The translations under genes and the position numbers were made by a program. The notes under the pieces were generated by a model. It saw only the letters and a program-made list of their open reading frames with translations. It was not told the DNA's origin and did no database searches. From an uncultured virus (IMG/VR IMGVR_UViG_3300021138_000020) (lineage: Duplodnaviria > Heunggongvirae > Uroviricota > Caudoviricetes), in the IMG/VR virus record IMGVR_UViG_3300021138_000020: a stretch of 64,000 nt of DNA; one strand, given 5' to 3'. The first letter of the stretch is position 1; every line of letters begins with the position of its first letter. Below are positions 8,388 to 61,611 of the stretch, in pieces.

Positions 8388-8635
8388 TGTCCGAACCGTT
8401 GCTGGCTCCAAAGTTTCTAAAGGTGTATATGTTGTTAAAACAATCACCTAACTTCTATCTGTATCCTACAGGTACGGCTAGTCCTGGCGGCGGAGCGACT
8501 GGGTTTTATTTTACTCGAGAGGAAGCAGAAAAATATAGAACAATGGAACTACTGGTTGCTAGTGCTACCGATAGTAAAGACAAGTTCCATATATTTGAGT
8601 TAGATATTCCAAATCCGGCATACGAAGGCAAATGA
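8387..8635 (+). CDS. Hypothetical protein
   Basis: TAATG coupling with queE. Confidence 0.6.
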   Translation: MSEPLLAPKFLKVYMLLKQSPNFYLYPTGTASPGGGATGFYFTREEAEKYRTMELLVASATDSKDKFHIFELDIPNPAYEGK

Positions 8636-8868
8636 TGTTTGGTAAGAATTATAATGATACAACATCAGATGACCTATGGTTTTACAAAACCGCAAGTGTT
8701 GAATACAAATTTGCAGTTTTTCCTAAACGCTGTGCTTTAACAGGAAAAAGAATTTGGTTAGAAAAGGGCTATAAATTTACTAAAATGATTACTGGCCCGG
8801 GTGATCCTATATACCTATATAGGTGGCACAACAAACACGAACATTTAATTTGGCAATTAAAAAGGTAA
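8632..8868 (+). CDS. Hypothetical protein
   Basis: ATGA overlap; FAVFPKRC...GKRIWL. Confidence 0.65.
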   Translation: MMFGKNYNDTTSDDLWFYKTASVEYKFAVFPKRCALTGKRIWLEKGYKFTKMITGPGDPIYLYRWHNKHEHLIWQLKR

Positions 8869-8871
8869 ACT

Positions 8872-25500: not shown

Positions 25501-28500
25501 TAAGAGCCATAATGGCCTACGCGGAATGCCCATTCTTCGTTATAGGTAATATCACCTTGTAGATTTTGTAGGCTAGCTTTGCCTAATTTGGCAATGGCAT
25601 TCTCTGTACCTTTTTCTTTAATAAATCCTTGATAGAATTTATATTGTGCAATAGGATCAGTAAAGACATTGTTTAGATATACTCGAGGAGTGTATCCTGT
25701 TAAATGCTGTGCCATTTTTTCTTGACCAACATCAAAGTTATCGATGTCTAGGCTATAGAAATCTTGGAACTGATTAGTTTTATAATTAAAGTTTGGTAAT
25801 AATTTAGGCTTTGGTTTACCTGTTAGTGTATTCCACTGTGTTGCATCAAATGCCGGTGTAGCACCTATTGCATTAATTGCACTGTAATAATTTCCGTTGT
25901 AATAAACAACATCCCCAGGACGATACGAAACATACGGAGACCATACGCTGGTTATTGCTTGATCATAGATAAATCCGGGACTATAAATATCACCGTTCCA
26001 ATTAGCAGTTCTAAAACCTACTAATTTCATTCTGTGTTGACGACTGCCAGTTTCAATATTAAAAATAACATCGCCAAAATCATCTTTATTATCAAATATA
26101 ATTCCGTGTTCTTTTTGTATGCAATTTAATCTAGCAAAATATATGCCAGCCGTATTAGGTAGGGTAGCAATTGTGCACAATCCATTTAATCTAGAAATAG
26201 TTAGATCCTTTTGAGGATACGGATTGCCGTCAGCTTTTAATATACTATATTGATAAAAATTGTTAAACAAATTATCAACTACCACTCGGTCAGCTTGGAA
26301 TTTAATTTTATCAGCAAATGGACTTATTGTGAGTACGCTAGTGTCGCCCCAATTTTGTGTCGACCAAAAGAGGAACTCATTGGCAGAAAAATTCCAATCT
26401 AAAACTACATCTAGATCAATATTATGTTCGTCGAATATAAATCCTTGATCAGTTAACCAGCGACCGTAGCCTAGAATGAAATCATATACTTCCTGTATAG
26501 ATGTAAATTCTGTTCCATACAGCACACGAGTCGGAGTAGGATTAAAGTTTAAAGCTATTTGAACCGTAGCACCGCCCTTGGTAGGCAAGCTAGGTAGAAT
26601 TTGATATAACGCAGAATTAAACACTTGTTCTGCTTGATGTGCTACAGTAACTCTATAATAATTACTACCATATTGAACAATTTGACCTACAGGATAGAAG
26701 TTTGTAGAATTGCCTGCCTTGGCAGTGGTAACTTGTTCGGTAGATAAACCAGTAGCTCCTTGAGACCCGCTAGGACTCCAGGTAACATATGGCTCAGTAA
26801 CCCCGCCAATGGTTATTGTACGAGTATTAGAATTTCTTAAAGGAGCATAACAATTAAAATATGGCTCTTGAGTGTCGTACCCTTTGATTACAAAATTTCC
26901 ATTATTTTTTTCTATAATAATTCCAGACACTCCTAGCGATAAAATAGGGTTGCTAGAATTTAGTCTAAGAGTATAATTCTGATTAGGTAACAATGCACCC
27001 GGATCTCTAGTAGTAGGTTCATATGCATCAATAATAACTTGCAAGGTTGATTGATCAACAAATCCGCCTACCTTAAAGAATAGATTATAGTTTGCATAAG
27101 ATAAATCTTGTTGCAATTCATTGAGATAATTAGTAGATCTTTGTTGTCCTACTTCTGAAACTAACACACTATAACCATTAGTCAATGCATTATTTTTTTC
27201 AAAGATAGGAACGGAGTTAATATTTAAAAACTTATATTCAGATCCATATGTCCACTGACCTGCAGAATTTTTAAACATTCGACTAGGGTCATACATATAT
27301 GATGCGTAGACTAATGGTCTAGTCAATGCTAACAATTTTTGTAGTGCAAATGGCCAGTAACTACTTCTACGCCAAGCAGTTTCTTGAGGACCTTGGTCGC
27401 CTGCTTGCCAGTCGCGGCGTATATCAGGCGGTGCTCCGGCAGTGACAAGATTATCAATCGGTGATAACAACTTGCCATAGTCATCCACAGGTATAATTTC
27501 GCTTAGACCAGGACGAGCATAAAAAGCATGAACTCCTTTAGTAGGACCATCGGCAATATATCCTTGTTCTAAATCATTCCATAAAATTCCATTACCGGAA
27601 GTATACGGGGCAGGTCCGTATCTATCTTCCCACCAGTCGGGCATAACACTGAATCCTAGCATTTCCCAAGGACAAATATGAGGGCGATCAGTGTCGTAGA
27701 AATATTTAAACAACGATCTCCAAGATCCTGATACAGGGCTGTCTAATAGTGAGCTGTAGGATTTAGAATAATTCCAAGTCTTTGGGGTAGATGCACTGAA
27801 AAATTTAGTATTGTCTGTATAGTCAATGCTGTATTTTCCAGCCCATCTTGTAAAATCTTCAGTGACTATTGCATTAATTTCGTCAATGGAATAGTCTGTT
27901 GTTCTAAATGCACCAGGTATAATTGTATTAACATCTAATAGGTCGGGATTGTATCCTACCTTTATATTATTATAGACACGCTTTTCAAACTCTAAAATTG
28001 CATCATCTCTATAATCGCCGTAGGCAACAGTAATACTGCCGTCGTGTCCTTGTATGACTCGCTGATGTACCACATAAGTAGTATCGATAAAAATAGATGG
28101 AACATACTTAGGATATAGACCCAGCTTGCTAGGAGTAGGCGGAATAAAAGATCCGCGAGTATCTGCATAGTCCTTTAATAAAATTTTATCACCAAAATTT
28201 AATTTTATTAAAATGTTTACCAACGGATCAACAGTATCAAACGTATAATCTCTGCCGTAGACTAATTGTTTTCCGTTTACATATACCAACACAGATCGTT
28301 GACTCAACGAGTTTAGATCAAATTCTGTGAATAATGGATAGCTTGTAACATTAATATCTGCTACTACCCAAGATCTTAATTTAGCATCATTGCCGTAGGC
28401 CAACATATCTGATTGATAATACGGACTTAGAGGACCCTGACTAACATTCATTGTAGTCAGTGCTTGATCTAGGGCAGCAATAGTATCTGTTTGATTACTA

Positions 28501-30728
28501 GATTTAGTTAATTGATTTATTAAACCAAATTTAAATTGATTATATTGATCACTAGCCTTGGTAATTGCATCTATAATGCTATGTTCTTTTTTACCAATAA
28601 ACATGTGTGCAAAAGAAATAGGATTTGCATTAGATATCAATTGAGTACCGAGGTGGCTATAATTGCCCATGTCTCTAAGATTAGTACCGCCTAACATTGT
28701 AGTTTGATAATTAGGCAATTTATTAATCATAGTATTAACATGTTCTGTTAATTCACTGAGTGTAAAAGACGATATAGAACCATTTAACGGATTGTTAGTT
28801 AAACTTAGAGACTCTAAATAGTATCCAGAATTTGTAGGAGTCTGAGAAGTGTAAGCTTCAATTAATACAACATCAGAATTAGTTAATGTATTGTTAAAAT
28901 TTATGAAATATCCGCCGACAGAACTTGTTGTTATCGAGTATTTGTCGTTGGTTAATTTTATTTGAGAATTATTTAGGTATACATCTGTGATTAAATCTTT
29001 ATCCAATAACGGGCTATTAACTGATGTCAGTTGTATTGTTGATGTAGAAAACTTAGGTGTTGTGACCTGTAAAATAGGTAAATGATAATTAGGAACACTA
29101 TCCCAGATATTATAAAAATTATTTCCTACTTTAAAGTATGTAATAGAGGTTGGAATAGAATACGATTCTAATGAATTAATTACAACATTAATTTTATCAT
29201 TACTAAAGTAATTAGCAAACAAGAAACTACCTATGGCATTGATATTTCTATATGAAAGAGGGAATCCTAGATAAGGATCTGCTTCGCCTGTACCCACTTG
29301 ATAACCAAAAATTTGATTACCAGTAAAATTGTCTAAGTAATAATCAGTATCGCTATAGCTGTTGCCAGACTCGTCGAATAAATCAAATAAGGGAGCCTGA
29401 TTTAATTTAGTTTTTTGTTGTGCAAAAATCCAAGTGCTGCCATTATACCACCAACTAGATCCTGCATAAGTTGATCCATTAGTAATTGTTACTACATCAG
29501 AAACGCTAGGAACATTGTCATAGGTAGGTTGTAAAGTAACGGTTAATTTTCCGTTAATAGAAACAAATACCACTTCATATATTTTTCCAACGATGCGAGG
29601 ATCTTCGGCGGCATTAAAAATAATACGATGACCGGGTTCTAGCATCACTCCATCAACATACACCAATGAAAGACCTGTTCTAGGATTAACAAGGACACCG
29701 TCTATATCATTAAAAGGAAAAACACTGGTGGTGTCAATAAAGTCAACTGGCTCTATACCAATTGATCCAAAATTATAAAGCTGAATTCCTGCATTAAATT
29801 CTACAATAGGTCGCTGTGCTCGTTTATCAGCAGGAAGAACTGGCGGTATTCCATTAGCTGCTGCACTTGCAATAATAACATCTCGATGCACCCAGCGATT
29901 ATATCTAGACCAAGGATTTAAATCGGGGCTGGCACGATTGATTGTAATATATTCAGGATTAACCGGCAAGCGTCTGTTAGAATCAAAACCAAAGTTTGCA
30001 AAAGAATCACCGTCAAATTGGTCTCTGTAAACTGACGAATAGCTAACATATTCTGTATAGGTATTGGCAGAGACTACAAGATCGTCAAGTAGTACTAGAG
30101 TAATGCTGGTGCCTACACCCTCTACATAGTATTCATTACGCCAATATTTTTTATTCACTTCAGGATTACTAAATGTCACTATCATACCATTAGACAATGT
30201 AACATTTAATCCAGTGACTGTAGCTGTAAAAGTATAAGAAGGTTGTCCTACAATATCTCTGTCAACATCCAACCCAGGAGTAATAATTTCAATAACTTCT
30301 GTAGTATCTGTACCCATCCAGTAGTAGTGCTGATAGTTAACAAGTTTATCCCAATCGATATGAGGATTGTAAGAATAAATTTCAGATCTAAACAATCTAT
30401 CTAAATTATTAGTATTTGCACCTTTTACACCAAGTTCGTTGATAAGATCGTCGTAACCTTGCACATCTTGTATGTTGCTAAGAGCATCTCTAGTTACTAG
30501 AGCAGGATCTAGCTGATAATCTCGTCTTAATTCCGTATTTTCAGCAATGTAAACATCACTGGTAGAGTTGTAAGTAGGTGTTAACTTAGAACCGATATAG
30601 CCGTCGATGCGTTCCAACTGAGCAGGTTGAATCATTTGATCCAGCGTGCTGGCTAGAAATTTTGCATTTCTATCAGTTTGCAAAGTGATAGGTAAAAAAT
30701 TAACTGATCGAATAGTTGCGGTTGTCAT
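19578..30728 (-). CDS. Giant (3716 aa) baseplate/virion structural protein
   Basis: Uninterrupted 11.1-kb ORF after gp6. FG-GAP-like repeats (FGSSL..MLVGAP, YGNSL..YVGAP), CBM-like motifs, and VKPYHT near the C-terminus. Confidence 0.8.
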   Translation of the reverse strand: MTTATIRSVNFLPITLQTDRNAKFLASTLDQMIQPAQLERIDGYIGSKLTPTYNSTSDVYIAENTELRRDYQLDPALVTRDALSNIQDVQGYDDLINELGVKGANTNNLDRLFRSEIYSYNPHIDWDKLVNYQHYYWMGTDTTEVIEIITPGLDVDRDIVGQPSYTFTATVTGLNVTLSNGMIVTFSNPEVNKKYWRNEYYVEGVGTSITLVLLDDLVVSANTYTEYVSYSSVYRDQFDGDSFANFGFDSNRRLPVNPEYITINRASPDLNPWSRYNRWVHRDVIIASAAANGIPPVLPADKRAQRPIVEFNAGIQLYNFGSIGIEPVDFIDTTSVFPFNDIDGVLVNPRTGLSLVYVDGVMLEPGHRIIFNAAEDPRIVGKIYEVVFVSINGKLTVTLQPTYDNVPSVSDVVTITNGSTYAGSSWWYNGSTWIFAQQKTKLNQAPLFDLFDESGNSYSDTDYYLDNFTGNQIFGYQVGTGEADPYLGFPLSYRNINAIGSFLFANYFSNDKINVVINSLESYSIPTSITYFKVGNNFYNIWDSVPNYHLPILQVTTPKFSTSTIQLTSVNSPLLDKDLITDVYLNNSQIKLTNDKYSITTSSVGGYFINFNNTLTNSDVVLIEAYTSQTPTNSGYYLESLSLTNNPLNGSISSFTLSELTEHVNTMINKLPNYQTTMLGGTNLRDMGNYSHLGTQLISNANPISFAHMFIGKKEHSIIDAITKASDQYNQFKFGLINQLTKSSNQTDTIAALDQALTTMNVSQGPLSPYYQSDMLAYGNDAKLRSWVVADINVTSYPLFTEFDLNSLSQRSVLVYVNGKQLVYGRDYTFDTVDPLVNILIKLNFGDKILLKDYADTRGSFIPPTPSKLGLYPKYVPSIFIDTTYVVHQRVIQGHDGSITVAYGDYRDDAILEFEKRVYNNIKVGYNPDLLDVNTIIPGAFRTTDYSIDEINAIVTEDFTRWAGKYSIDYTDNTKFFSASTPKTWNYSKSYSSLLDSPVSGSWRSLFKYFYDTDRPHICPWEMLGFSVMPDWWEDRYGPAPYTSGNGILWNDLEQGYIADGPTKGVHAFYARPGLSEIIPVDDYGKLLSPIDNLVTAGAPPDIRRDWQAGDQGPQETAWRRSSYWPFALQKLLALTRPLVYASYMYDPSRMFKNSAGQWTYGSEYKFLNINSVPIFEKNNALTNGYSVLVSEVGQQRSTNYLNELQQDLSYANYNLFFKVGGFVDQSTLQVIIDAYEPTTRDPGALLPNQNYTLRLNSSNPILSLGVSGIIIEKNNGNFVIKGYDTQEPYFNCYAPLRNSNTRTITIGGVTEPYVTWSPSGSQGATGLSTEQVTTAKAGNSTNFYPVGQIVQYGSNYYRVTVAHQAEQVFNSALYQILPSLPTKGGATVQIALNFNPTPTRVLYGTEFTSIQEVYDFILGYGRWLTDQGFIFDEHNIDLDVVLDWNFSANEFLFWSTQNWGDTSVLTISPFADKIKFQADRVVVDNLFNNFYQYSILKADGNPYPQKDLTISRLNGLCTIATLPNTAGIYFARLNCIQKEHGIIFDNKDDFGDVIFNIETGSRQHRMKLVGFRTANWNGDIYSPGFIYDQAITSVWSPYVSYRPGDVVYYNGNYYSAINAIGATPAFDATQWNTLTGKPKPKLLPNFNYKTNQFQDFYSLDIDNFDVGQEKMAQHLTGYTPRVYLNNVFTDPIAQYKFYQGFIKEKGTENAIAKLGKASLQNLQGDITYNEEWAFRVGHYGSYSTYQEIEIPLTEGTFIENPQIISLVDSVPTSNPNDSIHYVTPSDLEILPKNYTASQSFITTSTTDIIKLLSAGYVRLDDVTATAYNENSLLDIANNNKLNSGDTVWLGFTQDGNWDVLRYTKSPAQVVGVYVSSPVSRITFTTDRAHNLSAGTVVSVVNFNGQVDGVYIVQEIPQYTQFSVASTLASITNAPLLSPGQLFEFVSARYTSFDALPSDADLYLNNEGSLYWVDGAQDGSTPWAVYEKVNNYTSEAYLASDTPTGQGHGYSIDLSSDGTVLVSGSPYFDPNDGAGRVFVYNVNNKNLSLLTQYDPDFDNGLGLGYSVAYDSLPYSTSAYGLIFAGAPGSSSNRGAVKISGINQYLEEQSLVVITGPEANGNFGSSLFVQKNVASKTMLVGAPNANSTGAVHQYKVEGVPLTATSRSTLTPVGISLSSGDQWGYSISGADNGSYVAISAPGHSTGIVSVFNYFYYQSQLITSPFENGQAFGTTVHVSTAGNYLFVSDPYAYNSIDAKGQVAVYANVNGIFTLTQVITNPSADGNSNFGISIDVNSSVDHLIISSKGTFETTTSFDQGTDIFDQGSTTFYDSVTDSGAVYLYVRQDSRFVYAQEIASSDFNTLSGSNYGNSLAMSSDNTIYVGAPSASNHSAISGIVQFDVIDAAVNGLKQLRVQEDLTVIDTVKKITLLDTFKEDVLEYLEFIDPIKGKISGTAEQELTYKLISDPAIYSIGTAGVNVDTNKNWLDAHVGELWWDLSTAKFIWYEQGELEYRKNNWGNLFPGATIDVYEWVGSTLLPSEWSSQADTPAGLTQGISGQPKFADNSSISVKQVYDPITSTFSNVYFYWVKNKITVPNVAGRRISSYQAASVIADPTAYGLHYAAFISRNAIALSNVGNLLIGDRINLNVSQDTINNSIPLHTSWLLLQEDSAASMPSSSLEQKLFDSLLGHDSLGNIVPDPALSSRTRYGIEIRPRQTMFVDRIKALRNVIEFANSVLTATIITSNYSLANLEAQENYPDVSLNLYDQLVEDNYAFDRIDTSIFVKAEIEFTVNQNGNVTGVSILNAGNGYGALNPAYDNTGSQIGYQGPAFTDLDNPLNNPRGSGLKVSSVVNAQGQIISVSIINQGSGYASNFTASPRVHTVIVLNDSTYNGKWSEFIFTDGAWLRYHTQQYNTTLYWNYVDWVSADYKPYRDYAYTVGNVYDLVTLNLNIGDYVKVLNGGNGNYIILEYIDPATTQGTFSDNFNLLYSQNGTIKLLDSIWSASYGFNNNDTYDQTLYDQTPDIEIKYILTALRDDIFINELRVNWNLLFFAAVKYALSEQKMLDWAFKTSFINVTNNAVNLGQPPVYKLLDDAYFQQYVEEVKPYHTQIRTFVTNYPLVDNSNSKFTDFDFPSYYNSDSAKFVAQTVSTSTVEFNPVREMNIEMKFDRVSVVNQIGNTSTVDTFVCDGFSKAYTLSWAAKPDRSKIKILLGGILVQSADYTLKNYIKLVNGYNKHYTDLVFLTIIPAQGTKLIVHYDKSYDLYNAADRIYNLYAPTEGMPGVDPDQLMVGVSFPGVVVGGQYEGIGFKNPYGGYKPDSYIQGGTWTDGTIMDALGVNPADITLDGEYGFVTPNSSYAPEELMPGHITDTLGINVYTRSTSTVLGYRIFYDILGNTSFTRINRDASTRLANPLSFTNTEIFIESVTGFTPPDIVTNTPGVVLINDERIEYFSSSATNGVHVLSQLRRATYGTGINMSLPAGTTVFDQGSYQSLSYSDVTLIQNTFTNTLTYQYSIFSNSLSNKTYPNSTATIRFDGITLPTTYSTGQRPEDTLQVYYAGYLLRKSGSYVTDTTSTYDSLPMSSIVGSVDNLTTLGQTSSEIGNAYLVTSTNQVWVFTGNGFESALAPGYIYAGMKYLPPDFTINTVTSSVVLNTATVTLQDNIRLTFVKTMTSATNAWNDGDGGQPVSITSSTSTIPSFLKDGRAMLPNNRYYGQIS

Positions 30729-41766: not shown

Positions 41767-41835
41767 TATTTAACCAGATAAATAATGTGCTATTTTAATA
41801 ACAATGGTTGACACTGCCCATTCATATGTTATAAT
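41767..41835. promoter_or_regulatory. Divergent control region: late TAAATA on - (41767-72) and + (41779-84), plus a sigma70 promoter on +
   Basis: TTGACA (41808)-16 nt-TATAAT (41830) with extended -10 TG. Confidence 0.7.
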
Positions 41836-41861: not shown

Positions 41862-42776
41862 ATGACTATTGGATTCACAATAAGAAAGCAGAAGTACCTA
41901 AACAACCGAGACCTATTAGCAGAAATACACCGTTCAAAATGTTCTTTTTCAAGTTTTACACAACCTGAATACCAACAGCACGACATTATTTTAACCAGTC
42001 TCGATAAAATTAACATTAGAACTGTTGCTGATGCAAAACGAGCCAGGGCTAAAAGAATAGGCATTGCTGCATTTGCTGCAGCTCGTATGTCAGGTGACAA
42101 GAAAACTAAACTAGCAGACTGTACACCTGATTACAAAACCATTGCCAAAACGGACATCGTAATCCGTATTATGACCTTTGAGCACATTCCATTGGCTCCG
42201 GGTCGTAAGAAAACTGTCAAGAATACTGCAGACAGTCACGAAAAAGTAAACTTTCCACCCTACCAACATTGGAAATTCAACGACGAAGATGAATTAATCT
42301 GTGTAGGGAAATCACATTGGAAAGGCGGTGTGGACAAGGGCCACTTTAGCAAGGACCACGGGCGCATCACAGAAAACCTTGGTAAGATGTTTATCAAGTT
42401 AAGCGAACGCTATGCCCAACGATCAAACTGGCGTGGTTATACCTATATCGACGAAATGAAGGGACAGGCTATCCTACAATTAAGCCAAATTGGTTTGCAG
42501 TTTGACGAAAGCAAATCAGAAAACCCATTTGCCTACTATACCGCAGCGGTAACAAATAGCTTTACTCGTATTCTAAACATCGAAAAGAAGAGTCAAAATA
42601 TCCGAGATGACCTATTAGAAGAAGCAGGTCTAACACCGAGTTTGACTCGTCAAAACAGTCAAGAGTATGCAGAAGAAATTGCTCGTCAGGCAGAACTATA
42701 CAAGAATATGCGTATGCCCAAGAGTGAAGAAGTTTCTGAAGAAGAAGAAATAGAAAACGAAGATATTATTCCTTGA
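41862..42776 (+). CDS. Late-transcription sigma factor (T4 gp55-like)
   Basis: YLNNRDLL, NWRGYTY.DEM, FDESKSENPFAYYT; directly upstream of gp47/46 as in T4. Confidence 0.85.
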   Translation: MTIGFTIRKQKYLNNRDLLAEIHRSKCSFSSFTQPEYQQHDIILTSLDKINIRTVADAKRARAKRIGIAAFAAARMSGDKKTKLADCTPDYKTIAKTDIVIRIMTFEHIPLAPGRKKTVKNTADSHEKVNFPPYQHWKFNDEDELICVGKSHWKGGVDKGHFSKDHGRITENLGKMFIKLSERYAQRSNWRGYTYIDEMKGQAILQLSQIGLQFDESKSENPFAYYTAAVTNSFTRILNIEKKSQNIRDDLLEEAGLTPSLTRQNSQEYAEEIARQAELYKNMRMPKSEEVSEEEEIENEDIIP

Positions 42777-42822: not shown

Positions 42823-43836
42823 ATGGGTCTATTTAAAAAAGTTGCTGCGATGACAGATATTCATTTTGGTCTTAAGTCCAACTCAGCAACACATTTGCAG
42901 GACTGTGAGGAATTCGTAGATTGGTTTATTTCAACCGCCAAGGAGCAAGGGTGTGAAACTTGCATATTCCTTGGCGATTGGAGTCACAATCGAAACAGCT
43001 TAAACTTATTCACTTTGAATTCTAGTTTAAGATGTTTAGAAAAATTAGGTGCTGCCTTTGAGCAGTTCTTTTGGTTTCCCGGCAACCACGATTTGTTCTA
43101 CAAAGACAAGCGTGACATTCATTCCAGCGCCTTTGGCCGCCACATTCCAGGAGTCACCGTCATAGAGGGTGTAACAACTCTTGATGATGTCACCCTAGTC
43201 CCGTGGCTTGTTGGGGAAGAGTGGAAAGATATCAGCAAGGTAAAGAGCCGATATATGTTCGGGCACTTTGAATTACCCCTGTTCTATATGAATGCCATGG
43301 TGCAGATGCCCGATCACGGTGAATTACAAGCAGAACATTTTAAACACCAAGATTATGTGTTCAGCGGACATTTCCACAAGCGACAACAACGAGGAAAGAT
43401 TGTCTATATTGGCAATGCCTTTCCCCACAACTTTGCCGACAACTGGGATGACGACCGAGGTATGATGGTTCTAGAGTGGGGCGGAGAACCCGAGTTTATC
43501 AACTGGCCAAATTGTCCCAAGTATCGTGTGGTTAAACTGTCTGACCTTATTGATCAGAAAGACAGCATTATGAAATCTAAGATGCACCTACGGGTAAACT
43601 TAGACATCGATATCAGCTACGAAGAAGCAAATTTTATCAAAGAAGAATTCAATAAGAATTATGATATTCGAGAAATCAGTCTAACTCAGGATAAAAACAA
43701 CTTAGACGGCATCATCGAAGAAAGCCAAGATGCCAAGTTTGAATCAGTAGACCAAATTGTCACTGAACAGTTACTCAGTATCAATTCCGATCAATACAAC
43801 ATCAACACTCTACTAGAAATTTACAATGAACTTTAA
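42823..43836 (+). CDS. Recombination nuclease subunit (gp47/Mre11/SbcD-like)
   Basis: TDIHFG, LGD, GNHD, GHFE and SGHFH phosphoesterase motifs. Confidence 0.93.
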   Translation: MGLFKKVAAMTDIHFGLKSNSATHLQDCEEFVDWFISTAKEQGCETCIFLGDWSHNRNSLNLFTLNSSLRCLEKLGAAFEQFFWFPGNHDLFYKDKRDIHSSAFGRHIPGVTVIEGVTTLDDVTLVPWLVGEEWKDISKVKSRYMFGHFELPLFYMNAMVQMPDHGELQAEHFKHQDYVFSGHFHKRQQRGKIVYIGNAFPHNFADNWDDDRGMMVLEWGGEPEFINWPNCPKYRVVKLSDLIDQKDSIMKSKMHLRVNLDIDISYEEANFIKEEFNKNYDIREISLTQDKNNLDGIIEESQDAKFESVDQIVTEQLLSINSDQYNINTLLEIYNEL

Positions 43837-45610
43837 TATAAAGAATTTAACCGTAAAGAATTTTATGAGCGTGGGTCAAAATACCCAGGCAGTAGATTTT
43901 GATCGCGAATCCTTGACTTTGGTTTTAGGTTCTAATCTAGATCTAGGCGGCGATGATACCGGTTCTAGAAATGGCACTGGCAAGACTACCATTATTAATG
44001 CTCTAAGTTATGCTCTGTACGGTCAAGCACTTACCAACATTAAGAAAGAAAACTTAATCAATAAAACCAACAGCAAGGCCATGTTGGTCACTGTTGAGTT
44101 TGAAAAAGGTGGTAATCTTTATAGAATTGAACGCGGTCGCAAACCCAATGTGCTCAAGCTGTTTGTCAACAATGATCAGATTAAAACTGAAGAATTAGAA
44201 GACGATAGTCAGGGCGATAGCCGAGAAACACAAAAGGCCATTGAGCAGATGCTGGGTATGAGCCATACTATGTTTAAACATCTAGTGGCGTTGAATACCT
44301 ATACTGAGCCGTTCCTGGCTATGCGAGCTGCTGATCAACGAGAAGTCATCGAACAACTGCTAGGTATTACTCAATTAAGTGAAAAAGCAGAAACACTAAA
44401 GGCCTTGGTCAAAGAAACCAAGGATGCCATTGTATTAGAAACTGCTCGGATTGAAACTGTTAAGAAGTCCAATGAGAATATTCAGAAGAGCATTGACAGC
44501 CTAATCACCCGCGGCAATGCTTGGGAAACCAAGAAAGAACAAGATTTAACCAGCCTAGTAAACAACATACAAACACTGGTCACCGTGGATATCAATAACG
44601 AACTTGCTGCTCACGCTCAATTAAAAGTATGGGAAGATAACAACAGCAAGATTATCAGCCTACAGAAACAAAAGTCCACTCTAGAAAGTGCTGTAACGCA
44701 AGCAGACAAAACTCTCACCAAGTATAATAAAGAATTAGAAAAGTTAGAAACCAAACAATGCCCGGCTTGTGAACAGGATCTTCACGATCACAAGCACGAA
44801 GAAATGACTGCCACTGTTACTAAAAATATTACCGATGCTTATACATATCTAGAAAAAGTATCAGCTGATTATCAAAAGATTGTAGACGAAATAACTGCCA
44901 TCGGTGAACAACCTAAACGACCTATTACATTCTACGATACAGAAGCAGAAGCACTGGGTCATAAAAATAACTTGGATAGCCTAGAAGCTCGATTGAATCA
45001 ACGAGCAGAAGAAACTAACCCCTATGCCGAACAGGTTGAAGAACTAAAGAAAAGTGCCCTACAAGAAATTTCGTGGGACACCATTAACGAGTTGACTAGA
45101 ATTAAAGAACATCAAGAGTTCCTGCTAAAACTTCTGACCAATAAAGACAGCTTTATTCGCAAAAAGATCATTGATCAGAATTTAAACTACTTGAACAAAC
45201 GCTTGAGTTATTACATCGACAAGCTAGGATTGCCACATGCTGTGGTATTCCAAAATGACCTAAATGTGGAAATTACTCAACTAGGTCAAGATTTAGACTT
45301 TGATAATTTAAGCCGAGGCGAGCGTAATCGATTGATTCTTTCTATGAGCTTTGCCTTTAGAGATGTATGGGAAGGGCTGTACCAGAGCATTAACCTGTTG
45401 TTCATCGACGAGCTTGTTGATGCCGGTATGGACTCAGCGGGTGTGGAAAGTGCGCTAGCCGTGCTGAAGAAAATGGCTCGAGAACGAAATAAGAACATTT
45501 ACCTTATATCTCACAAGGATGAATTAGTGGGCCGTGTAAATAGTGTCCTCCGGGTGGTAAAAGAGAACGGCTTTACTTCGTATAATAATGATTTAGAATA
45601 TGTGGCTTGA
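43826..45610 (+). CDS. Recombination ATPase subunit (gp46/Rad50/SbcC-like)
   Basis: KNFMS, NGTGKT, CPAC zinc hook, LSRGE, LFIDE, ISH. Confidence 0.95.
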   Translation: MNFNIKNLTVKNFMSVGQNTQAVDFDRESLTLVLGSNLDLGGDDTGSRNGTGKTTIINALSYALYGQALTNIKKENLINKTNSKAMLVTVEFEKGGNLYRIERGRKPNVLKLFVNNDQIKTEELEDDSQGDSRETQKAIEQMLGMSHTMFKHLVALNTYTEPFLAMRAADQREVIEQLLGITQLSEKAETLKALVKETKDAIVLETARIETVKKSNENIQKSIDSLITRGNAWETKKEQDLTSLVNNIQTLVTVDINNELAAHAQLKVWEDNNSKIISLQKQKSTLESAVTQADKTLTKYNKELEKLETKQCPACEQDLHDHKHEEMTATVTKNITDAYTYLEKVSADYQKIVDEITAIGEQPKRPITFYDTEAEALGHKNNLDSLEARLNQRAEETNPYAEQVEELKKSALQEISWDTINELTRIKEHQEFLLKLLTNKDSFIRKKIIDQNLNYLNKRLSYYIDKLGLPHAVVFQNDLNVEITQLGQDLDFDNLSRGERNRLILSMSFAFRDVWEGLYQSINLLFIDELVDAGMDSAGVESALAVLKKMARERNKNIYLISHKDELVGRVNSVLRVVKENGFTSYNNDLEYVA

Positions 45611-46013
45611 ATCTACAAAAGACCATGTAACCTGCGAAAAGTGCGGTAGTCGAGTGTCTAAGCTAACTTACAAACGGTATCACGGTGCCCAATGTATTTT
45701 GCTAGATGACTCGGAAATCGTACGGACACGAGCCGAGTATACGCAAGCATACTCAGATTTTGTGGCTGCACTTGTAGAAGTTAATAACTATCATCGTAGG
45801 TTCCTTAAATCTAGTGCCCTTAGATCAGGTACCGAGTTTAGGCATACTGTGGTTAGACTACAGAAATTGTGTATCGTTCTAAGAAACCGAAGCAAAGATA
45901 TGGCCGAGGCATTTGATAAGAAGAAACGAGAAGTAGAGGCCAAAGAGCCACCAAAGAAGTATAAAAAGAAGAATGTGGACATACCAAAATCAAGCAGTGG
46001 AGACTCTTCCTGA
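45600..46013 (+). CDS. Hypothetical protein with N-terminal CxxC...RYHGxxC zinc module
   Basis: CEKCG...KRYHGAQC, then a basic helical region. Confidence 0.65.
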   Translation: MWLESTKDHVTCEKCGSRVSKLTYKRYHGAQCILLDDSEIVRTRAEYTQAYSDFVAALVEVNNYHRRFLKSSALRSGTEFRHTVVRLQKLCIVLRNRSKDMAEAFDKKKREVEAKEPPKKYKKKNVDIPKSSSGDSS

Positions 46014-46398
46014 AGATTGTGTAGGATTTGTATATCTTATCACGAACTTGACCAATGGTAGAAAATATATAGGCAAAAAACTAGCAAAGTTCTCTAAAAC
46101 AACATATAAAACTGTTACACTAAAGAATGGCACTAAAAAGAAGAAGAAAATTAGAAGCAAAATATCAAGCGACTGGCAAACATATTGGTCTAGCTCAGAC
46201 GAACTTAAAAAAGATATCGAATTGCTTGGCCAGAATAATTTTACAAGAGAAATATTATTCTATTGCAAAAGTAAAAGTGAATGCACTTATGTAGAAGCAA
46301 GAACCCAGTTTGAAAGAAAAGTATTAGAATCAGATGATTATTATAACGGACAGATAAGTTGCAGGATACACCAATCACATATAAAAGGCAAGATTTAA
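45973..46398 (+). CDS. Stand-alone GIY-YIG nuclease
   Basis: GFVYLITN...KYIGKK, YWSSS, FTREIL, E..., YYN. Confidence 0.85.
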   Translation: MWTYQNQAVETLPEDCVGFVYLITNLTNGRKYIGKKLAKFSKTTYKTVTLKNGTKKKKKIRSKISSDWQTYWSSSDELKKDIELLGQNNFTREILFYCKSKSECTYVEARTQFERKVLESDDYYNGQISCRIHQSHIKGKI

Positions 46399-46466
46399 TA
46401 AATATTAGTGCCAGTCGCGATGCGTCAACATCCACTGACTCTAACAGTTATGAAGGAACTATCAGC

Positions 46467-47059
46467 ATGCCTATTTACCTCTATGTAAAAACCCACAACA
46501 AAACTGGGTTAAAATATCTTGGCAAGACTATTTCTATTGATCCGCATTTATATCAAGGTTCGGGCACCGTTTGGAGGCAACATATCAAAAAACACGGATA
46601 TGATGTAACTACTGAAATTTTGCTTGAAACTACTAATCCATCTGAAATTAAAGAAGCCGGAATTTACTATTCAAATTTATGGAATATTGTAGAATCCAAA
46701 GAATTTGCTAATATTGTCCCAGAGATGGGAGACGGTGGCGCTATGCCGTGGACCATTGAAAGCAGACAAAAACTTTCAAGGACAAATAAAGGCAAAAAAC
46801 ATACAGAAGAATCTAAGAAGAAATATAAAGAAGCACAACAAAAACAGGCACAACATCTAAGTAAAAAACAAAAGAATATCTAGCAATTCCAGAAAATTAT
46901 AAAAAAAGATGTAACCAACTAGCAGCTAATTGGAATATTCCAGGATACCGAGAACGGATGTCCGAGAAAATGTCCTCCTTAAAATGGTGTAACGACGGTA
47001 TTAGAAATTATCGTAAGTCTGTTATTCCAGAAGGAATGGTTGCGGGTAAGTTACATTGA
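46467..47059 (+). pseudogene. GIY-YIG (Seg-like) homing endonuclease with a frameshift in the A6 run at 46863-46868
   Basis: IYLYVKTH..GLKYLGKT, YQGSG, NUMOD3-like KGKKHTEE. The frame stops at 46883, but the -1 frame continues ...KWCNDGIRNYR..IPEGMVAGKLH* to 47059. Confidence 0.75.
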
Positions 47060-47084
47060 CATGGCTCCCACATTAGAAATAAAA

Positions 47085-47523
47085 TTTAGGCACCTTAAAC
47101 GGTAACAAAAGCAAGCGCAAGCCAATATCGTGCGCCCTAGACCTGGATCTCGGATCACAGGGACGGAAATCTCTTGCCGTTAAGAGTTCTCAATCAGTAT
47201 CCTTTACAGGACCAAGATCGCAAATAGCCGCGGTTTGATTGTTAGAAGATAGTAGAAAAGGCAAAAAAGAAGGGAGAAAAACCCTGGGTTTACATATGCG
47301 ATAGTGTGTATATGTAAGCTGCCGTTGAGATGAAGACGGAGCTCGTGGTACCGGTCAACCGCCACTGTAATGCTCTAACACTGTGTGACTGAGGTAACTC
47401 GGATAATGTTCTTCGCCCTGTGCGGGCGAAGTGTGACCAAACAATCTGGATAATATTAAAAACGTCTTCGACGAAACAACTGATCTGAGCGTGAGCGATA
47501 GATCAAACGAACGCAGTTCGTTT
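47085..47523 (+). ncRNA. Candidate large structured non-coding RNA (family not recognised)
   Basis: About 13 consecutive stems with many G-U pairs and GNRA loops on the + strand; no credible ORF. Confidence 0.6.
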
Positions 47524-47530
47524 ATAAATA
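47523..47530 (+). promoter_or_regulatory. T4-type late promoter
   Basis: TATAAATA 20 nt upstream of the 47551 gene. Confidence 0.75.
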
Positions 47531-47550
47531 GATGATTAAATCTTAATTCT

Positions 47551-48786
47551 ATGAAGCTCAATCACATTTACAACGACTATCTCTATGAAGGACTAGACAA
47601 ACCATCTATTCGTTCTGTGAGATTATGGGAACACGCAGGTATTTTAATCAAAGAAGCTGCTCTTACTCCTGATCAAATAAATCAACTATTTCAACAAATA
47701 GAAGCAGGTGCTACAGCCTCGGGTTCTAATAGAACTATGATTGGGCAAGGTAAAGATATAGCTTCAACAGTTAATAGGGCGTGGGAAGATCTAAAAACTA
47801 AAATACAAAACTCTGGTCCTATCAAAGGATTGGATGCCAAATACGATCAAGCTGCTGAAAAGTTAAAACAAGCTACAGGTGGTGATCAAGGCGTAATGAA
47901 GTATGTGCAAAAGTACAGAGATTTTGCCAAAGCACATCCAATTGCACAGAGTTTAATTTATTCAGCGTTGATTGCAGCCGCAGGTATCAGTGGTGCTGGA
48001 TTAGGTGGTGCAGCAGCACTGGGCCTATTTAAAATGGTAGACAAACTACTTCAAGGTGAGAAGTTTAGCAGTGCTGCTTATGCAGGCGCTAAAACAGGCG
48101 CCACTGCTTATGCCGCTGGACAAATCGGCAAAGCACTACAAGGGCAACAGGCACAACCTTTGGATCATCAGTACGGTACTCGTCCTGGCGAAAATGAATT
48201 AGTGGGACAAACTGGTCCCGGACAATATGCTAGTAATTATAGCGGAACTGCTATAGGTGGTATGCCGGTTATCCCTGGACAACCATTAAATCCTACACAA
48301 ATGGCCTTAGCCGATATGTCAATACAAAACGGCAATAAACTTAGCCCTGCTGTTCAAGCTGCTTACGATCTAGCAAAACAACAGGCTACACAGGAATCAA
48401 TTAACTTGTCAGAATCGGCAATTGCCTTGATAATTGGCAAAGTTGTTGCCCGTCAGCGTAAACTTGATGAGGGTGTTTGGGATACAATTAAACAAAAGGC
48501 CGCTACTGTAGGCAAGAACTTAACCACCAAAATCACCGCAGACAAACTACAATCTGCTTGGAAGAAAGCAGGAAGTCCTACAGATAGTGATGCAGTGGCC
48601 AACATACTGCGACAAGCCGGTGTAGATGATACTGTTATCAACAAGGTATTTGGAGATATGCAAATACCTGTACCTTCTGCTACTCCTGCTGCTCAAAATA
48701 TAAATATTGATGACATTGTTGCTAGAATTAAAAAATTACCACCAGCCGATCAGCAAAAAGTATTAGCCGCATTAGGAACTGTATAA
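47551..48786 (+). CDS. Hypothetical late protein, possible internal head protein
   Basis: Late promoter; Ala/Gly/Gln-rich; repeated (L/I)xE motifs. Confidence 0.6.
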   Translation: MKLNHIYNDYLYEGLDKPSIRSVRLWEHAGILIKEAALTPDQINQLFQQIEAGATASGSNRTMIGQGKDIASTVNRAWEDLKTKIQNSGPIKGLDAKYDQAAEKLKQATGGDQGVMKYVQKYRDFAKAHPIAQSLIYSALIAAAGISGAGLGGAAALGLFKMVDKLLQGEKFSSAAYAGAKTGATAYAAGQIGKALQGQQAQPLDHQYGTRPGENELVGQTGPGQYASNYSGTAIGGMPVIPGQPLNPTQMALADMSIQNGNKLSPAVQAAYDLAKQQATQESINLSESAIALIIGKVVARQRKLDEGVWDTIKQKAATVGKNLTTKITADKLQSAWKKAGSPTDSDAVANILRQAGVDDTVINKVFGDMQIPVPSATPAAQNINIDDIVARIKKLPPADQQKVLAALGTV

Positions 48787-55102: not shown

Positions 55103-55110
55103 ATACTACT

Positions 55111-55359
55111 ATGATTTTAAGAGAGTTTATCTATTTTGACCGTGAACATGCTGATCCTCAGGATGACAGCAGGTATCTCAGCCAGAATGATACTACCAAT
55201 GTTCTGAAGCAAAAAGACCTTCGCAAGACTCGTTTAACATTGAGAATGATCAATGATATACGCAAAGCCAGCGAATCTCATGACAAAGAACATCGTAAAG
55301 AACTAGGGTTAGTGAGAAAAATGTACGCTGCTCCTCCGCCAGAAGCGGCAGCACAATAA
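55111..55359 (+). CDS. Small late/prohead-associated hypothetical protein
   Basis: MILREF...RKTRLTL..IN..R; TAAATA-N5-ATG. Confidence 0.7.
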   Translation: MILREFIYFDREHADPQDDSRYLSQNDTTNVLKQKDLRKTRLTLRMINDIRKASESHDKEHRKELGLVRKMYAAPPPEAAAQ

Positions 55360-55542
55360 GTACAAAGATAACTGTGCGGTCTAAAAACTAAATATTTTAG
55401 ACAGAAAAATTCAAAAACCAGAAGTAATTCTGCGTCATCAAGGTCAAAACGGCTCGTTTTAGGCCTATTTCGTATATAAATTTCCGCGGTATAGTAAATA
55501 CCATACAGCCTTGCCGCTACCCTAATAGGAGAAATTTATAAC

Positions 55543-59609: not shown

Positions 59610-59641
59610 ATGTAATGCAGCAGACTATACTAAATAATAGT

Positions 59642-60436
59642 ATGAAACATTTCATATATAAAACATCCCATCCTAATGGAAAATACTATATTGGTAGACA
59701 TAGTACTGATAATGAAAACGACGGATATATTGGTTCAGGACGCTGGCCGAGTTCTATAAAAGATAAATCCATTCTTACCAGAGAAATATTGGAATATTTT
59801 TCAGATCAACAGTCTTTAATAGAGGCTGAAGATAGGTATCTTGCAGAACATTTCGGAAAACTAAATTGTATGAATATGAGTAATAGAGGTACTGGTGCCC
59901 CCGTTGGCGATTCAAATCCTATGAAACGATCCGAAGTTAAGGAAAAGTTTAAAGGTGATAATCATTGGACTCATACACAACCAGAAAAACGTGAACAGAT
60001 CAGAGATCTACAAATAGAAAAATATAAAAAAGGTATTCATGTATGGTCTAAAGATCATCCAAATAAAGGCGGATCAGTATCGCGAAATACTGTTAAACAA
60101 GGAAGAAATATCTTTCAAACTAATAATCCTAGTATATGGCGCAGCGAACAAGGTATACACCATTGGCAAGATGGAAAAAGTCCAAACGCTGATGGAAAAT
60201 TAAATAAGAAATTAGTTGAAGAAGGTCGACATAACTTTCTAGGTGCTGAACTTAATAATAAACGTATTGCAGAAGGTACACATAATTTTGTAGGTAGTGA
60301 AAGCAATCTTAAAAGATTAGCCGAAGGACGACATCCAAGTCAACAAAAGAAAATATGTGAGCATTGCGGTAAAGAATCTAGTATAGGTATGTACGTAAGA
60401 TGGCATGGTGATAAATGTAAAGGAAAAACAAAATGA
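59642..60436 (+). mobile_element. Free-standing GIY-YIG (Seg-like) homing endonuclease gene
   Basis: FIYKT..GKYYIGRHST..DGYIGSG, REILE, NPM, repeated G.H.F units, C-terminal CEHCG...RWHGDKC. Confidence 0.85.
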
Positions 60437-60618: not shown

Positions 60619-60711
60619 CTAAATAACACTGTTCGCTCTTAACGGAGAGTTTATGCAGAAATCCAACTGCGTAGATCATAGAACGGTCTTAAACATTAAG
60701 GAGAAAACAAA

Positions 60712-61611
60712 ATGGGACGTCCTCTAAAAGCAAGATATTTCGTAAAAAGCGGTGCTAAAGACACTAGCTATGCAGTAAAATATGAAGGTGTTACAATTGC
60801 GGTATCAAACACAGGTTCGCACTATTCACAAGCTGCTACTATTGTAATTTCTGGTCCAGACGCATCTGGTGATAGTGTAAATGCCACAGCTTCTATTACT
60901 ATTGCTTCGCCTACTGCCAACGGCGGCATTACTGGTGCTACAATCACTAATCCAGGTGCTGGTTATTCTAGCAATCCTACAGTTAGTATTATTAAACCTG
61001 CTACTGTAAACTTTGCCGGAGCTACCTCTGGTGTCAATACAAGAAATACATTTACTGTATCAACAACTGCCGGACTTAGTGTAGGTATGTTGATTTCTGG
61101 TGCTGCAACTGGTATCAGCGGTTATATTACTGCTATCAACGGCAACATCATTTCTTCTACACAAAACAACAACGGTTCTTGGTCTAGTGCAACTAACCTA
61201 GTATTCAGCGATGCTGGTACTGGTGCAGTATTCGCAACTGGTCTAACACACTTAGAAACTGATGTTGGAACAATTGCTGCTACAGCTTATTTGTCAACAG
61301 GCAGCAGCGCAACGGCATCTGCTATCCTTAAACAACACGGTGCTCGTAGCTATCTAGTAGAAAGCGATCAAGGTCGCGGTGTTGTTAAATTAACTACTTC
61401 TACAGTCGTAGCTGGCACAATGCAAATTGTTGCCAAAGATGGCAATGGTAATAGCTATACAGTTCAAAAGCTAACAGGCAAAAAAGCCAGCCTATGGCGC
61501 AAAACACAAAACGGTGCTAACGCTTGGTTATTTGCCAATGACTCAGTTGCTGGTTGGGTTCTAGGATGGGCTAATGCTACCTCTACCAAAGTTGGTATTC
61601 AATCTAATTAA
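60712..61611 (+). CDS. Virion structural protein (head/neck decoration-like)
   Basis: Late promoter, SD TAAGGAG, MGRPL start, ITNPGAGY..P.V beta-rich motif. Confidence 0.65.
   Translation: MGRPLKARYFVKSGAKDTSYAVKYEGVTIAVSNTGSHYSQAATIVISGPDASGDSVNATASITIASPTANGGITGATITNPGAGYSSNPTVSIIKPATVNFAGATSGVNTRNTFTVSTTAGLSVGMLISGAATGISGYITAINGNIISSTQNNNGSWSSATNLVFSDAGTGAVFATGLTHLETDVGTIAATAYLSTGSSATASAILKQHGARSYLVESDQGRGVVKLTTSTVVAGTMQIVAKDGNGNSYTVQKLTGKKASLWRKTQNGANAWLFANDSVAGWVLGWANATSTKVGIQSN

Follow-up and report, generated by a model that had tools for sequence, protein, structure and literature searches.

A conserved RNA of about 430 nucleotides with matched twin segments in a T4-like freshwater phage is a full-length copy of Polynucleobacter-1 RNA

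We describe here a structured non-coding RNA of about 430 nucleotides (nt), located at 47099-47527 (+) of a 64,000-nt stretch of DNA (the window) from an uncultured T4-like freshwater phage (IMG/VR record IMGVR_UViG_3300021138_000020). The element is a full-length copy of Polynucleobacter-1 RNA. The analysis demonstrated to which family the RNA belongs, how and on which strand it folds, how far it extends and which genes accompany it, together with a rule concerning two short segments, called twins in this article: they vary between lineages and are identical to each other. The composite reading that we propose, with a probability of about 0.6, is that this ~430-nt Polynucleobacter-1 RNA would be the tail of an early transcript, would be free-standing in mobile elements, and would hold two copies of one partner by means of its twins.

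The family was recognized by an Rfam scan, in which RF01718 matched 47110-47244 on the + strand with 111.8 bits (expectation value (E) 2e-23, cut-off 37) over positions 1-141 of the 141 of the model. The original prediction, made from the sequence of the window, had stated that no family could be assigned and that a strong Rfam match would remove the novelty of the element; by this measure the match therefore takes most of the novelty away. No other Rfam family, including GOLLD, ROOL and the introns, was found at E <= 10 within 46300-47800. The suggested resemblance to the 5' end of a group II intron was not borne out either: the GUGCG concerned is the 3' strand of helix P1, and, as to the criteria for group I and group II introns, the flanking open reading frames (ORFs) are complete and unrelated. 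RF01718 also matched 20 of 20 other loci from both genomic settings described below (58-96 bits); 15 of these were divergent finds made with a pattern from the 3' part, therefore the 5' and the 3' parts go together in those loci.

Polynucleobacter-1 is entered in the table of Weinberg 2010 (PMC2864571) as a likely RNA with a tentative cis-regulatory call (cis-reg 'y', switch '?'), coming from Burkholderiales and from fresh water or estuary, with 16 representatives; in the supplementary Stockholm file 17 rows were counted, and the copy of the motif on a Polynucleobacter chromosome lies in NC_009379, around position 2,130,772. In that alignment the longer rows and the consensus structure extend over about 280 nt, to the equivalent of 47385, and include the pseudoknot called PK3 below. 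Common to it and to the phage RNA are P1-P4, one pseudoknot and three hairpins, namely AGGG/CCCU, the long one and GGUACCG...ACCGCC, and 47260-47385 of the window aligns with the downstream elements of the authors' original alignment. The Rfam model stops at 141 positions, whereas the phage RNA has about 430 nt. The table and the alignments of PMC2864571, whose descriptive supplement may say more, contain neither the last ~140 nt (the modules, the inter-module hairpin and the terminal hairpins) nor PK1, PK2 and the twin rule, and they do not mention the T4-like phage and integrative-element settings or the trailing late promoter. The literature search on Polynucleobacter-1 found this one paper, and in its table and alignments no extension as far as the late promoter, higher conservation of the 3' part or twin modules were found. 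What the Rfam model covers is the third of the RNA that is less conserved, and "cis-regulatory" is not a fitting label. A 141-nt motif catalogued since 2010 now has ends, three pseudoknots, two settings and more than 100 natural variants. Few RNAs longer than about 300 nt have a comparable conserved tertiary structure; such large RNAs with known roles are mostly ribozymes or ribonucleoprotein cores.

The relatives were collected with patterns taken from the RNA. A 16-mer from the element returned 110 viral contigs, and the same motif was present in 77 of them (first set); a pattern from the 3' part gave at least 120 further loci (second set), and a metagenome scan with a 5' pattern of the integrase-bearing subtype, here called type ii, gave 119 loci (L391-L509). 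Distant-mode blastn of 47060-47550 against 50,697 GenBank phage records found no match, and the scan of genome contigs with the 5' 16-mer yielded 0 true motifs among the 120 matches listed. The structure was evaluated on A2, a MAFFT alignment of 102 non-redundant sequences, with controls in which the pairing partners were slid by 1-3 columns. The 119-pair structure is 90.0% paired (35-42% in the slid controls), 89 pairs are changed on both sides (46-58) and 1442 cells are compensatory (196-330), and none of 500 shuffles attained any of the five measures; in an earlier set of 42 sequences 94.4% pairing was obtained against 35-40% in the controls. Mutual information and covariation revealed three pseudoknots, PK1, PK2 and PK3. 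Since G-U cells exceed A-C cells in the alignment (969 vs 337), the folded strand is the + strand. The earlier description of this region as a structured non-coding element, more precisely a large, ornate + strand phage RNA favoured by its G-U pairs and comparable in kind to GOLLD and ROOL, is thus supported by both the fold and the strand data.

Most of the stems proposed in that description are backed by covariation, namely GCGCA/TGCGC, CCTGGATC/GATC-a-CAGG, CTCT/AGAG, CAATCA/TGATTG and the two hairpins that it encloses, AGGG/CCCT, the stem of 13 base pairs (bp), GAGC-GTGG-CGG/CCG-CCAC-GCTC, CTTCGCCC/GGGCGAAG, TGATC/GATCA and AAACGAAC/GTTCGTTT. For CGTC/GACG a stem-like variation can be recognized by eye, while the MAFFT alignment is poor there and gives about 60% pairing. 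Two further stems found no support: in place of CCGTT/GACGG the UUGA at that site pairs with the UCAA loop at 47355-58, and CTGAG-gtaa-CTCGG is specific to the window sequence. The loop CCGT does take part in a pseudoknot, as had been supposed, with ACGG at 47099-47102 as its partner instead of the copies at 47163 or 47336.

The RNA lies in a gap of 491 nt (47060-47550) that contains no + strand ORF of at least 30 amino acids (aa). As had been noticed earlier, this is the longest gap between ORFs of at least 90 aa in the window, albeit marginally (the next ones measure 484 and 440 nt), and it is richer in G+C, with 45.8% in 47085-47523 compared to 39.2% in the whole window and 24-45% in six other gaps. 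The two next longest gaps, 8388-8871 and 55103-55542 (484 and 440 nt, G+C 37-39%), gave no Rfam match at the gathering score. The minimal 5' end of the RNA, 47099, is set by PK1 and stands 11 nt ahead of the Rfam match; at the other side conservation continues in the relatives as far as a predicted late promoter, and the final hairpin shares one base with TATAAATA (47523-47530), the last of the former being the first T of the latter. The exact 3' pattern was kept in 34 of 42 sequences fished with the 5' 16-mer, and the 5' 16-mer in just 6 of the 72 fished with the 3' pattern, among the matches listed; judged from these sequence counts, the uncatalogued 3' part is better conserved than the part covered by Rfam.

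Four parts follow one another from 5' to 3' in the RNA: the Rfam 5' domain of 135 nt, then the middle domain, then a 3' domain in which two modules flank a hairpin, and finally a group of three hairpins at the terminus. PK1 precedes the first of these: its 5' strand ACGG (47099-47102) pairs with CCGU (47177-47180) in the loop of P3, and this helix 1 is 94% paired in A2 with the states AU27/GC22/UA3, CG55, GC51/AU8 and GC60/AU2. In the type-ii subtype PK1 has 6 bp, CUACUG/CAGUAG, switching to CUACCG/CGGUAG. The 5' domain (47110-47244, +; RF01718) comprises P1, P2, P3 and the multibranch P4 with two hairpins; its helices 2-10 covary, being 74-100% paired with changes on both sides in most pairs. 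In the middle domain (47260-47385, +; helices 11-20) GGC/GCC, AGGG/CCCU and the 13-bp hairpin are followed by the GAGC...GCUC hairpin, GAGC-GUGG-uac-CGG-UCAA-CCG-CCAC-GCUC, in which GGUAC.G....ACCGCC is invariant. The loop UCAA (47355-58) of this hairpin forms PK2 with UUGA at 47325-28 (helix 17, 96% paired, with the states UA62/CG40, GC73/AU26 and UA66/GC15/AU10), while in PK3 the apical loop at 47301-06 pairs with 47379-84 (helix 15, 98% paired, double changes in 6 of 6 pairs).

In the 3' domain, module A (47383-47409, +; GUGUGAC-N7-ACUC-GGAUAAU-GU) carries its twin at 47401-47407 and a co-varying flank at 47395-47396, and module B (47431-47456, +; GUGUGAC-N6-AUCU-GGAUAAU-AU) has its twin at 47448-47454 and its flank at 47442-47443. 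Between them stands the hairpin CUUCGCCC-ugugc-GGGCGAAG (47411-47431, +; helix 23), with 8 pairs of which 4 are doubly changed. The terminal hairpins, all on the + strand, are CGUC-uuc-GACG (47463-73), which is poorly aligned, UGAUC...GC-GUGA-GC...GAUCA (47482-47504), which covaries, and AAACGAAC-gca-GUUCGUUU (47505-47523), with double changes in all 8 pairs; covariation in A2 extends over their helices 26-31. At two places an A-C opposition alternates with a standard pair between lineages. Within 47197-47213 the pair U47200-A47211 together with the opposition A47199/C47212 alternates with the opposition C47200/A47211 together with the pair A47199-U47212, and at 47400/47448 C-G with G-U alternates with C/A with A-U; these A-C oppositions are possibly protonated wobbles, or they may arise from the alignment.

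Modules A and B are direct repeats, and on the grounds of their sequence the 3' domain is an internal duplication. What distinguishes it is that the twins, variable segments of 5-8 nt, are identical to each other and differ between lineages. In the 102 sequences 47401/47448 is GG in 57 and AA in 45, 47405/47452 is AA in 83 and GG in 19, with 0 of 102 discordant in either case, and the flanking pair 47396/47443 shows AA52 GG25 TT6 CC4 TA15. When independent contrasts were counted on a tree built from columns outside the modules, both copies had changed together in 13 of 13 for one site pair (p 0.0002), in 7 of 7 for a second and in about 10 of 12 for the third. The rule holds in the type-ii RNAs as well, where identical 5-mers follow ACUC and AUCU in 42 of 46 distinct sequences; these are of 8 kinds (AGCGA, GGUGA, AUCGA, AGAGA, AGCAA, GACAA, GUCAA and AACGA), and of the four exceptions three are mis-hits of the pattern and one is a true twin mismatch. 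Further clades have the twins GUGUCAAG, AGACAAG, UGGCAU and GACAU. A helix between 47400-04 and 47444-48 (CGGAU/AUCUG) was considered and rejected, its three central pairs being invariant and the outer two not pair-like; by eye, this pairing is missing in the type-ii RNAs. The mixed twin state that would best stabilize this sole drawable inter-module helix never occurs, and because of this absence, and of the missing helix in type ii, the twin rule is not explained by pairing between the modules. Two segments that are matched to each other and free to vary between lineages represent an unusual evolutionary rule, which suggests a two-site mode of binding.

The genes of the window give matches to DNA polymerase, thymidylate synthase, and baseplate and head proteins. 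Upstream of the RNA and on the same strand a unit of early genes is found, with a gp55-like late sigma factor (41862-42776), gp47/SbcD (42823-43836), gp46/SbcC (43826-45610), an ORF of 137 aa and the gene of a 141-aa GIY-YIG protein (45973-46398). A sigma-70-type promoter, TTGACA-16-TATAAT with TG (41808-41835, +; 12 of 12 matches), precedes this gp55-gp47-gp46-GIY-YIG string and is likely the source of the transcript that would read into the RNA. Downstream follows a 411-aa gene (47551-48786, +), whose predicted T4-type late promoter, TATAAATA on the + strand, ends 21 nt before the ATG. In a further alignment, A1, ATAAATA occupies the corresponding position in the majority of the rows (by eye), and it does so in 78 of 116 second-set loci among the matches listed. 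Homologues of the 411-aa protein are located downstream in only 9 loci, and four loci (L004, L031, L033 and L068) have no + strand ORF of at least 80 aa within about 1 kb downstream.

The GIY-YIG gene is a far more constant neighbour. It was found upstream of the RNA on the same strand in 54 of 57 first-set loci, the other 3 having no upstream DNA, and it is adjacent in 67 of 70 second-set loci among the matches listed, 63 times within 60 nt of the estimated RNA 5' end and 4 times at 61-87 nt; in the remaining 3 listed loci it is 0.9-1.1 kb upstream on the same strand. Even in a clade where gp46 is only ~53% identical it precedes the RNA in 28 of 29 loci, and its protein is still 67-74% identical. 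No conserved promoter was found between the GIY-YIG stop codon and the RNA in T4-type loci. The window has a near-perfect sigma-70-type promoter there (TTGACA-18-TAAAAT, 47056-47085, +), at the junction of an endonuclease insertion; it is not conserved, since L034 has TTGCCA and the other loci nothing comparable. The junction between the GIY-YIG stop and the RNA is a hot spot of insertion, with genes of 0.9-1.8 kb in four contigs (L356-L359, G002-G005). Among the intervening genes are a methyltransferase-like one (DUF1698) and ORFs of no known family, and in the first-set locus L031 a radical-SAM/B12-binding gene lies in the ~1.8 kb between GIY-YIG and RNA; radical-SAM genes also occur upstream of the GIY-YIG gene.

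The 141-aa protein consists of the catalytic domain only and matches Pfam SegE_GIY-YIG (PF19835, E 1.8e-33, profile 1-123 of 123). In 20 homologues 47 columns are invariant, and GFVY, YIGKK, REI, E108 and N125, the catalytic residues among which are presumably those known from I-TevI, are invariant or nearly so. The fold model (predicted local distance difference test, pLDDT, 83) had its best PDB match in the catalytic domain of I-TevI, a weak one (Foldseek E 0.15, probability 0.96), and a sequence search of PDB gave nothing below E 0.07. Because it is kept across clades and strongly conserved, this gene is a conserved resident of these genomes, not a sporadic selfish gene. A second GIY-YIG gene, of the homing endonuclease type (46359-47059, +; phrog_314), is inserted between it and the RNA in the window and in L034. 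In the window this copy is disrupted, since an A-run near 46862 has lost 1 nt; that of L034 (1704-2435) is intact and codes for 243 aa ending in HGSHIRNKI*. This is the ancestral C-terminus of the 141-aa gene in other phages, the 141-aa gene itself having gained another tail (...HQSHIKGKI*), therefore the insertion took place within the 3' end of the resident gene.

Homologues of the 141-aa protein (39-51% identity) are present in 313 GenBank phage records, and the four of these loci that were inspected, in Melnitz, ACP17, phiM12 and ACG-2014f, have neither a large gap nor an RF01718 match. As a separate observation, the RNA-linked GIY-YIG proteins have an insert of 6-9 residues (...YKTVTLKNGT...) in a lysine-rich loop at residues ~44-53 (alignment A3); it is missing in the four homologues of RNA-less cultured phages, and the region forms a long beta hairpin in the fold model. 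No covariation was detected between the columns of the GIY-YIG protein and the twin states in 93 pairs (maximum mutual information 0.18 of 0.99 bits). The idea that the RNA might be partnered with this short protein therefore draws support from synteny in T4-type loci and is weakened in other respects: there are RNA-less homologues, intervening genes and, as described next, 61 of 65 metagenome loci without GIY-YIG, besides the missing covariation. The RNA is not an obligate partner of GIY-YIG.

The type-ii RNA is of full length and of the same architecture as the T4-type RNA. A GIY-YIG gene accompanies it in only 4 of 65 metagenome loci with sufficient upstream DNA. Its own neighbours are a divergent DUF6641 gene 100-300 nt upstream (55 of 60) and, downstream on the same strand, the gene of a tyrosine recombinase of 188-198 aa (29 of 33) that matches the catalytic domain only (Pfam 2-170 of 172). 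The cassette thus reads DUF6641/phrog_31551 gene, divergent RNA, then recombinase, as exemplified by L448:2311-2745 (-) and L400:3951-4514 (+); larger integrases are nearby in some type-ii loci. In the literature nothing relevant was found for GIY-YIG with structured RNA and phage by title or abstract, nor for tyrosine recombinase with RNA-guided and structured RNA, and none was found on DUF6641. Two unrelated settings, and with them mobile elements of two kinds or more, carry the RNA, which is therefore an autonomous module.

In the mechanism that we favour, the RNA of T4-type phages would be synthesized together with the 3' end of the early gp55-gp47-gp46-GIY-YIG transcript or be released from it by cleavage, and in the type-ii setting the RNA would be made from its own promoter. 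It would then persist as a free folded RNA carried by the mobile element, and the twins would hold two copies of one partner, a nucleic acid or a protein site. Where the transcript begins and ends, that it is stable and acts in trans, and that it has such a partner are what we infer here; as our best guess we propose an adaptor RNA that stands free and binds one partner in two copies. A passive structure at the 3' end of early transcripts, serving as terminator, stabilizer or insulator and guarding them from 3' exonucleases at the early/late border, would explain why the RNA stands right where the early gene string meets a late promoter, ends in covarying hairpins and has no conserved promoter of its own in T4-type loci. 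We consider it rather unlikely, since termination needs far less than about 430 nt with three pseudoknots, the twin rule and dozens of unpaired bases that hardly vary, and behind its divergent gene the type-ii RNA cannot be a 3' untranslated region. The tentative call in the table of Weinberg 2010, a cis-regulatory leader or riboswitch of the downstream gene, could draw on the highly conserved junction bases of the 5' domain and on those loci in which an ORF starts 30-60 nt past the last hairpin. That the RNA is not such a leader follows from the late promoter behind the fold, the few 411-aa homologues and the loci without a downstream ORF; moreover, the genes that follow the RNA in different loci are not related to one another, in some loci the next ~1 kb lacks a + strand ORF of at least 80 aa or contains an ORF of the opposite strand, and no expression platform overlaps a ribosome-binding site, which makes this explanation very improbable. 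Least probable of all is an element acting as DNA, such as iteron-like origin repeats or protein-binding sites with incidental folds: two direct repeats evolving in concert do resemble iterons, but the G-U excess is strand-specific, the covarying pairs include long-range helices and pseudoknots, which are not to be expected in duplex DNA, and the motif AYYYRGATRAT has just 3 other matches in the 64-kb window.

Another competitor of the free-standing adaptor makes the RNA a subunit that gives sequence recognition, through its twins, to enzymes reduced to a catalytic domain, the 141-aa GIY-YIG protein and the 188-aa recombinase. The twins do resemble specificity elements, the catalytic-domain-only recombinase follows the type-ii RNA in 29 of 33 loci, and in nearly all T4-type loci GIY-YIG is upstream on the same strand, with a protein more similar across clades (67-74%) than gp46 (~53%) and with the lysine-rich-loop insert that the four RNA-less homologues do not have. 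Nevertheless we regard such a subunit as unlikely: four inspected GIY-YIG loci, among homologues in 313 records, are without the RNA, 61 of 65 metagenome loci have the RNA without GIY-YIG, genes of 0.7-1.8 kb can part the two, no protein column tracks the twin states, and synteny inside one phage clade is non-independent evidence. FimB and FimE, tyrosine recombinases of about 200 aa, bind DNA unaided, which counts against it too. Bolder still would be a programmable adaptor, whose twins base-pair with two copies of a short sequence and so aim or regulate the adjacent GIY-YIG nuclease or tyrosine recombinase; the targets may be DNA sites sharing a core or identical RNA loops such as anticodon loops. 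This proposal is improbable in our judgement; if true, the RNA would belong to a new class of partners by which nucleases or recombinases are directed. A reading of the twins as codons for phage tRNAs was considered too; the 64-kb window contains no tRNA genes.

Several observations weigh against the free-standing adaptor and the evidence behind it. Folded by itself, the sequence is no more stable than expected by chance (z = -1.70 for the + strand, -1.92 for the - strand; for either strand 5 shuffles in 100 were equally stable), therefore the proof of structure comes from the relatives. These were all fished with patterns that belong to the RNA itself, so that the conservation figures are biased, and MAFFT alignments are not structure-aware. 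As to the 3' end, the terminator rule flagged no terminator-like site in 47505-47535, where the tail is AUAAAUAG; a role of the last hairpin in termination would be our inference, and the 3' end of the RNA is therefore a guess. A lake metatranscriptome (one run, contigs) contained a 165-nt contig of a relative on 47264-47371 at a depth of 2.8, and contigs of such low depth cannot show transcription, ends or level. Phage recombination that moved both linked twin sites could inflate the contrast counts, although it does not explain why the copies match. With regard to the partner, mutual information indicated no third partner for the twins inside the RNA, and the twin complements within the RNA sit at inconsistent places. 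Complements of 8-11 nt were found 117-337 nt upstream in type-ii loci, and they do not track the twin type, as AGAGA and GGUGA loci carry an AGCGA-type site. In T4-type flanks complements of the own type number 28, compared to 18 per control state, at scattered positions, a result no better than that of the controls. Because no consistent twin partner was found in the RNA or in its flanks, the adaptor idea is drawn from the twin pattern itself.

Two other features of the window may be recorded. The Rfam freshwater-2 RNA (RF02980) was detected at 60634-60714 (+) with 61 bits (cut-off 49.9); it ends where a head-closure-like ORF (60712-61611) begins, and it is downstream of a homing-endonuclease-like gene (59615-60436) that comes directly after the gene of the major head protein. 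On the other strand 19578-30728 (-) codes for a virion structural protein of 3716 aa (phrog_10938), unusually long for a T4-like phage.

Among known systems, SegB of T4 is a GIY-YIG gene situated among the tRNA and stable-RNA genes of that phage, and it is a sporadic selfish gene with a DNA-binding tail. The present arrangement is similar in that a GIY-YIG gene adjoins a structured RNA gene in a T4-type phage; it differs in that the 141-aa protein is tail-less, is missing from hardly any locus and has diverged less than gp46. The bridge RNA of IS110 and the omega RNAs of IscB/TnpB (HEARO) are guide or adaptor RNAs next to the DNA enzymes of mobile elements. The phage RNA shares with them its position beside a small DNA enzyme and the short variable segments in a conserved scaffold. 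Its enzymes, GIY-YIG and tyrosine recombinase, are unrelated to theirs, its two variable segments are identical and do not read two different sites as in the bridge RNA, and, unlike in those systems, the RNA and the flanking DNA searched held no complementary target for the twins. GOLLD measures about 800 nt, and the phage RNA, with about 430 nt, is smaller; it has no sequence or structure match to GOLLD, ROOL and OLE. It is like them in being large for a non-coding RNA, multi-domain and pseudoknotted, with many conserved unpaired bases, and in being carried by phages or mobile elements. Kretsch et al. 2025 (PMC12286853) describe GOLLD, ROOL and OLE as forming homo-oligomers, and by analogy the duplicated identical segments of the phage RNA would suit a symmetric assembly of this kind.

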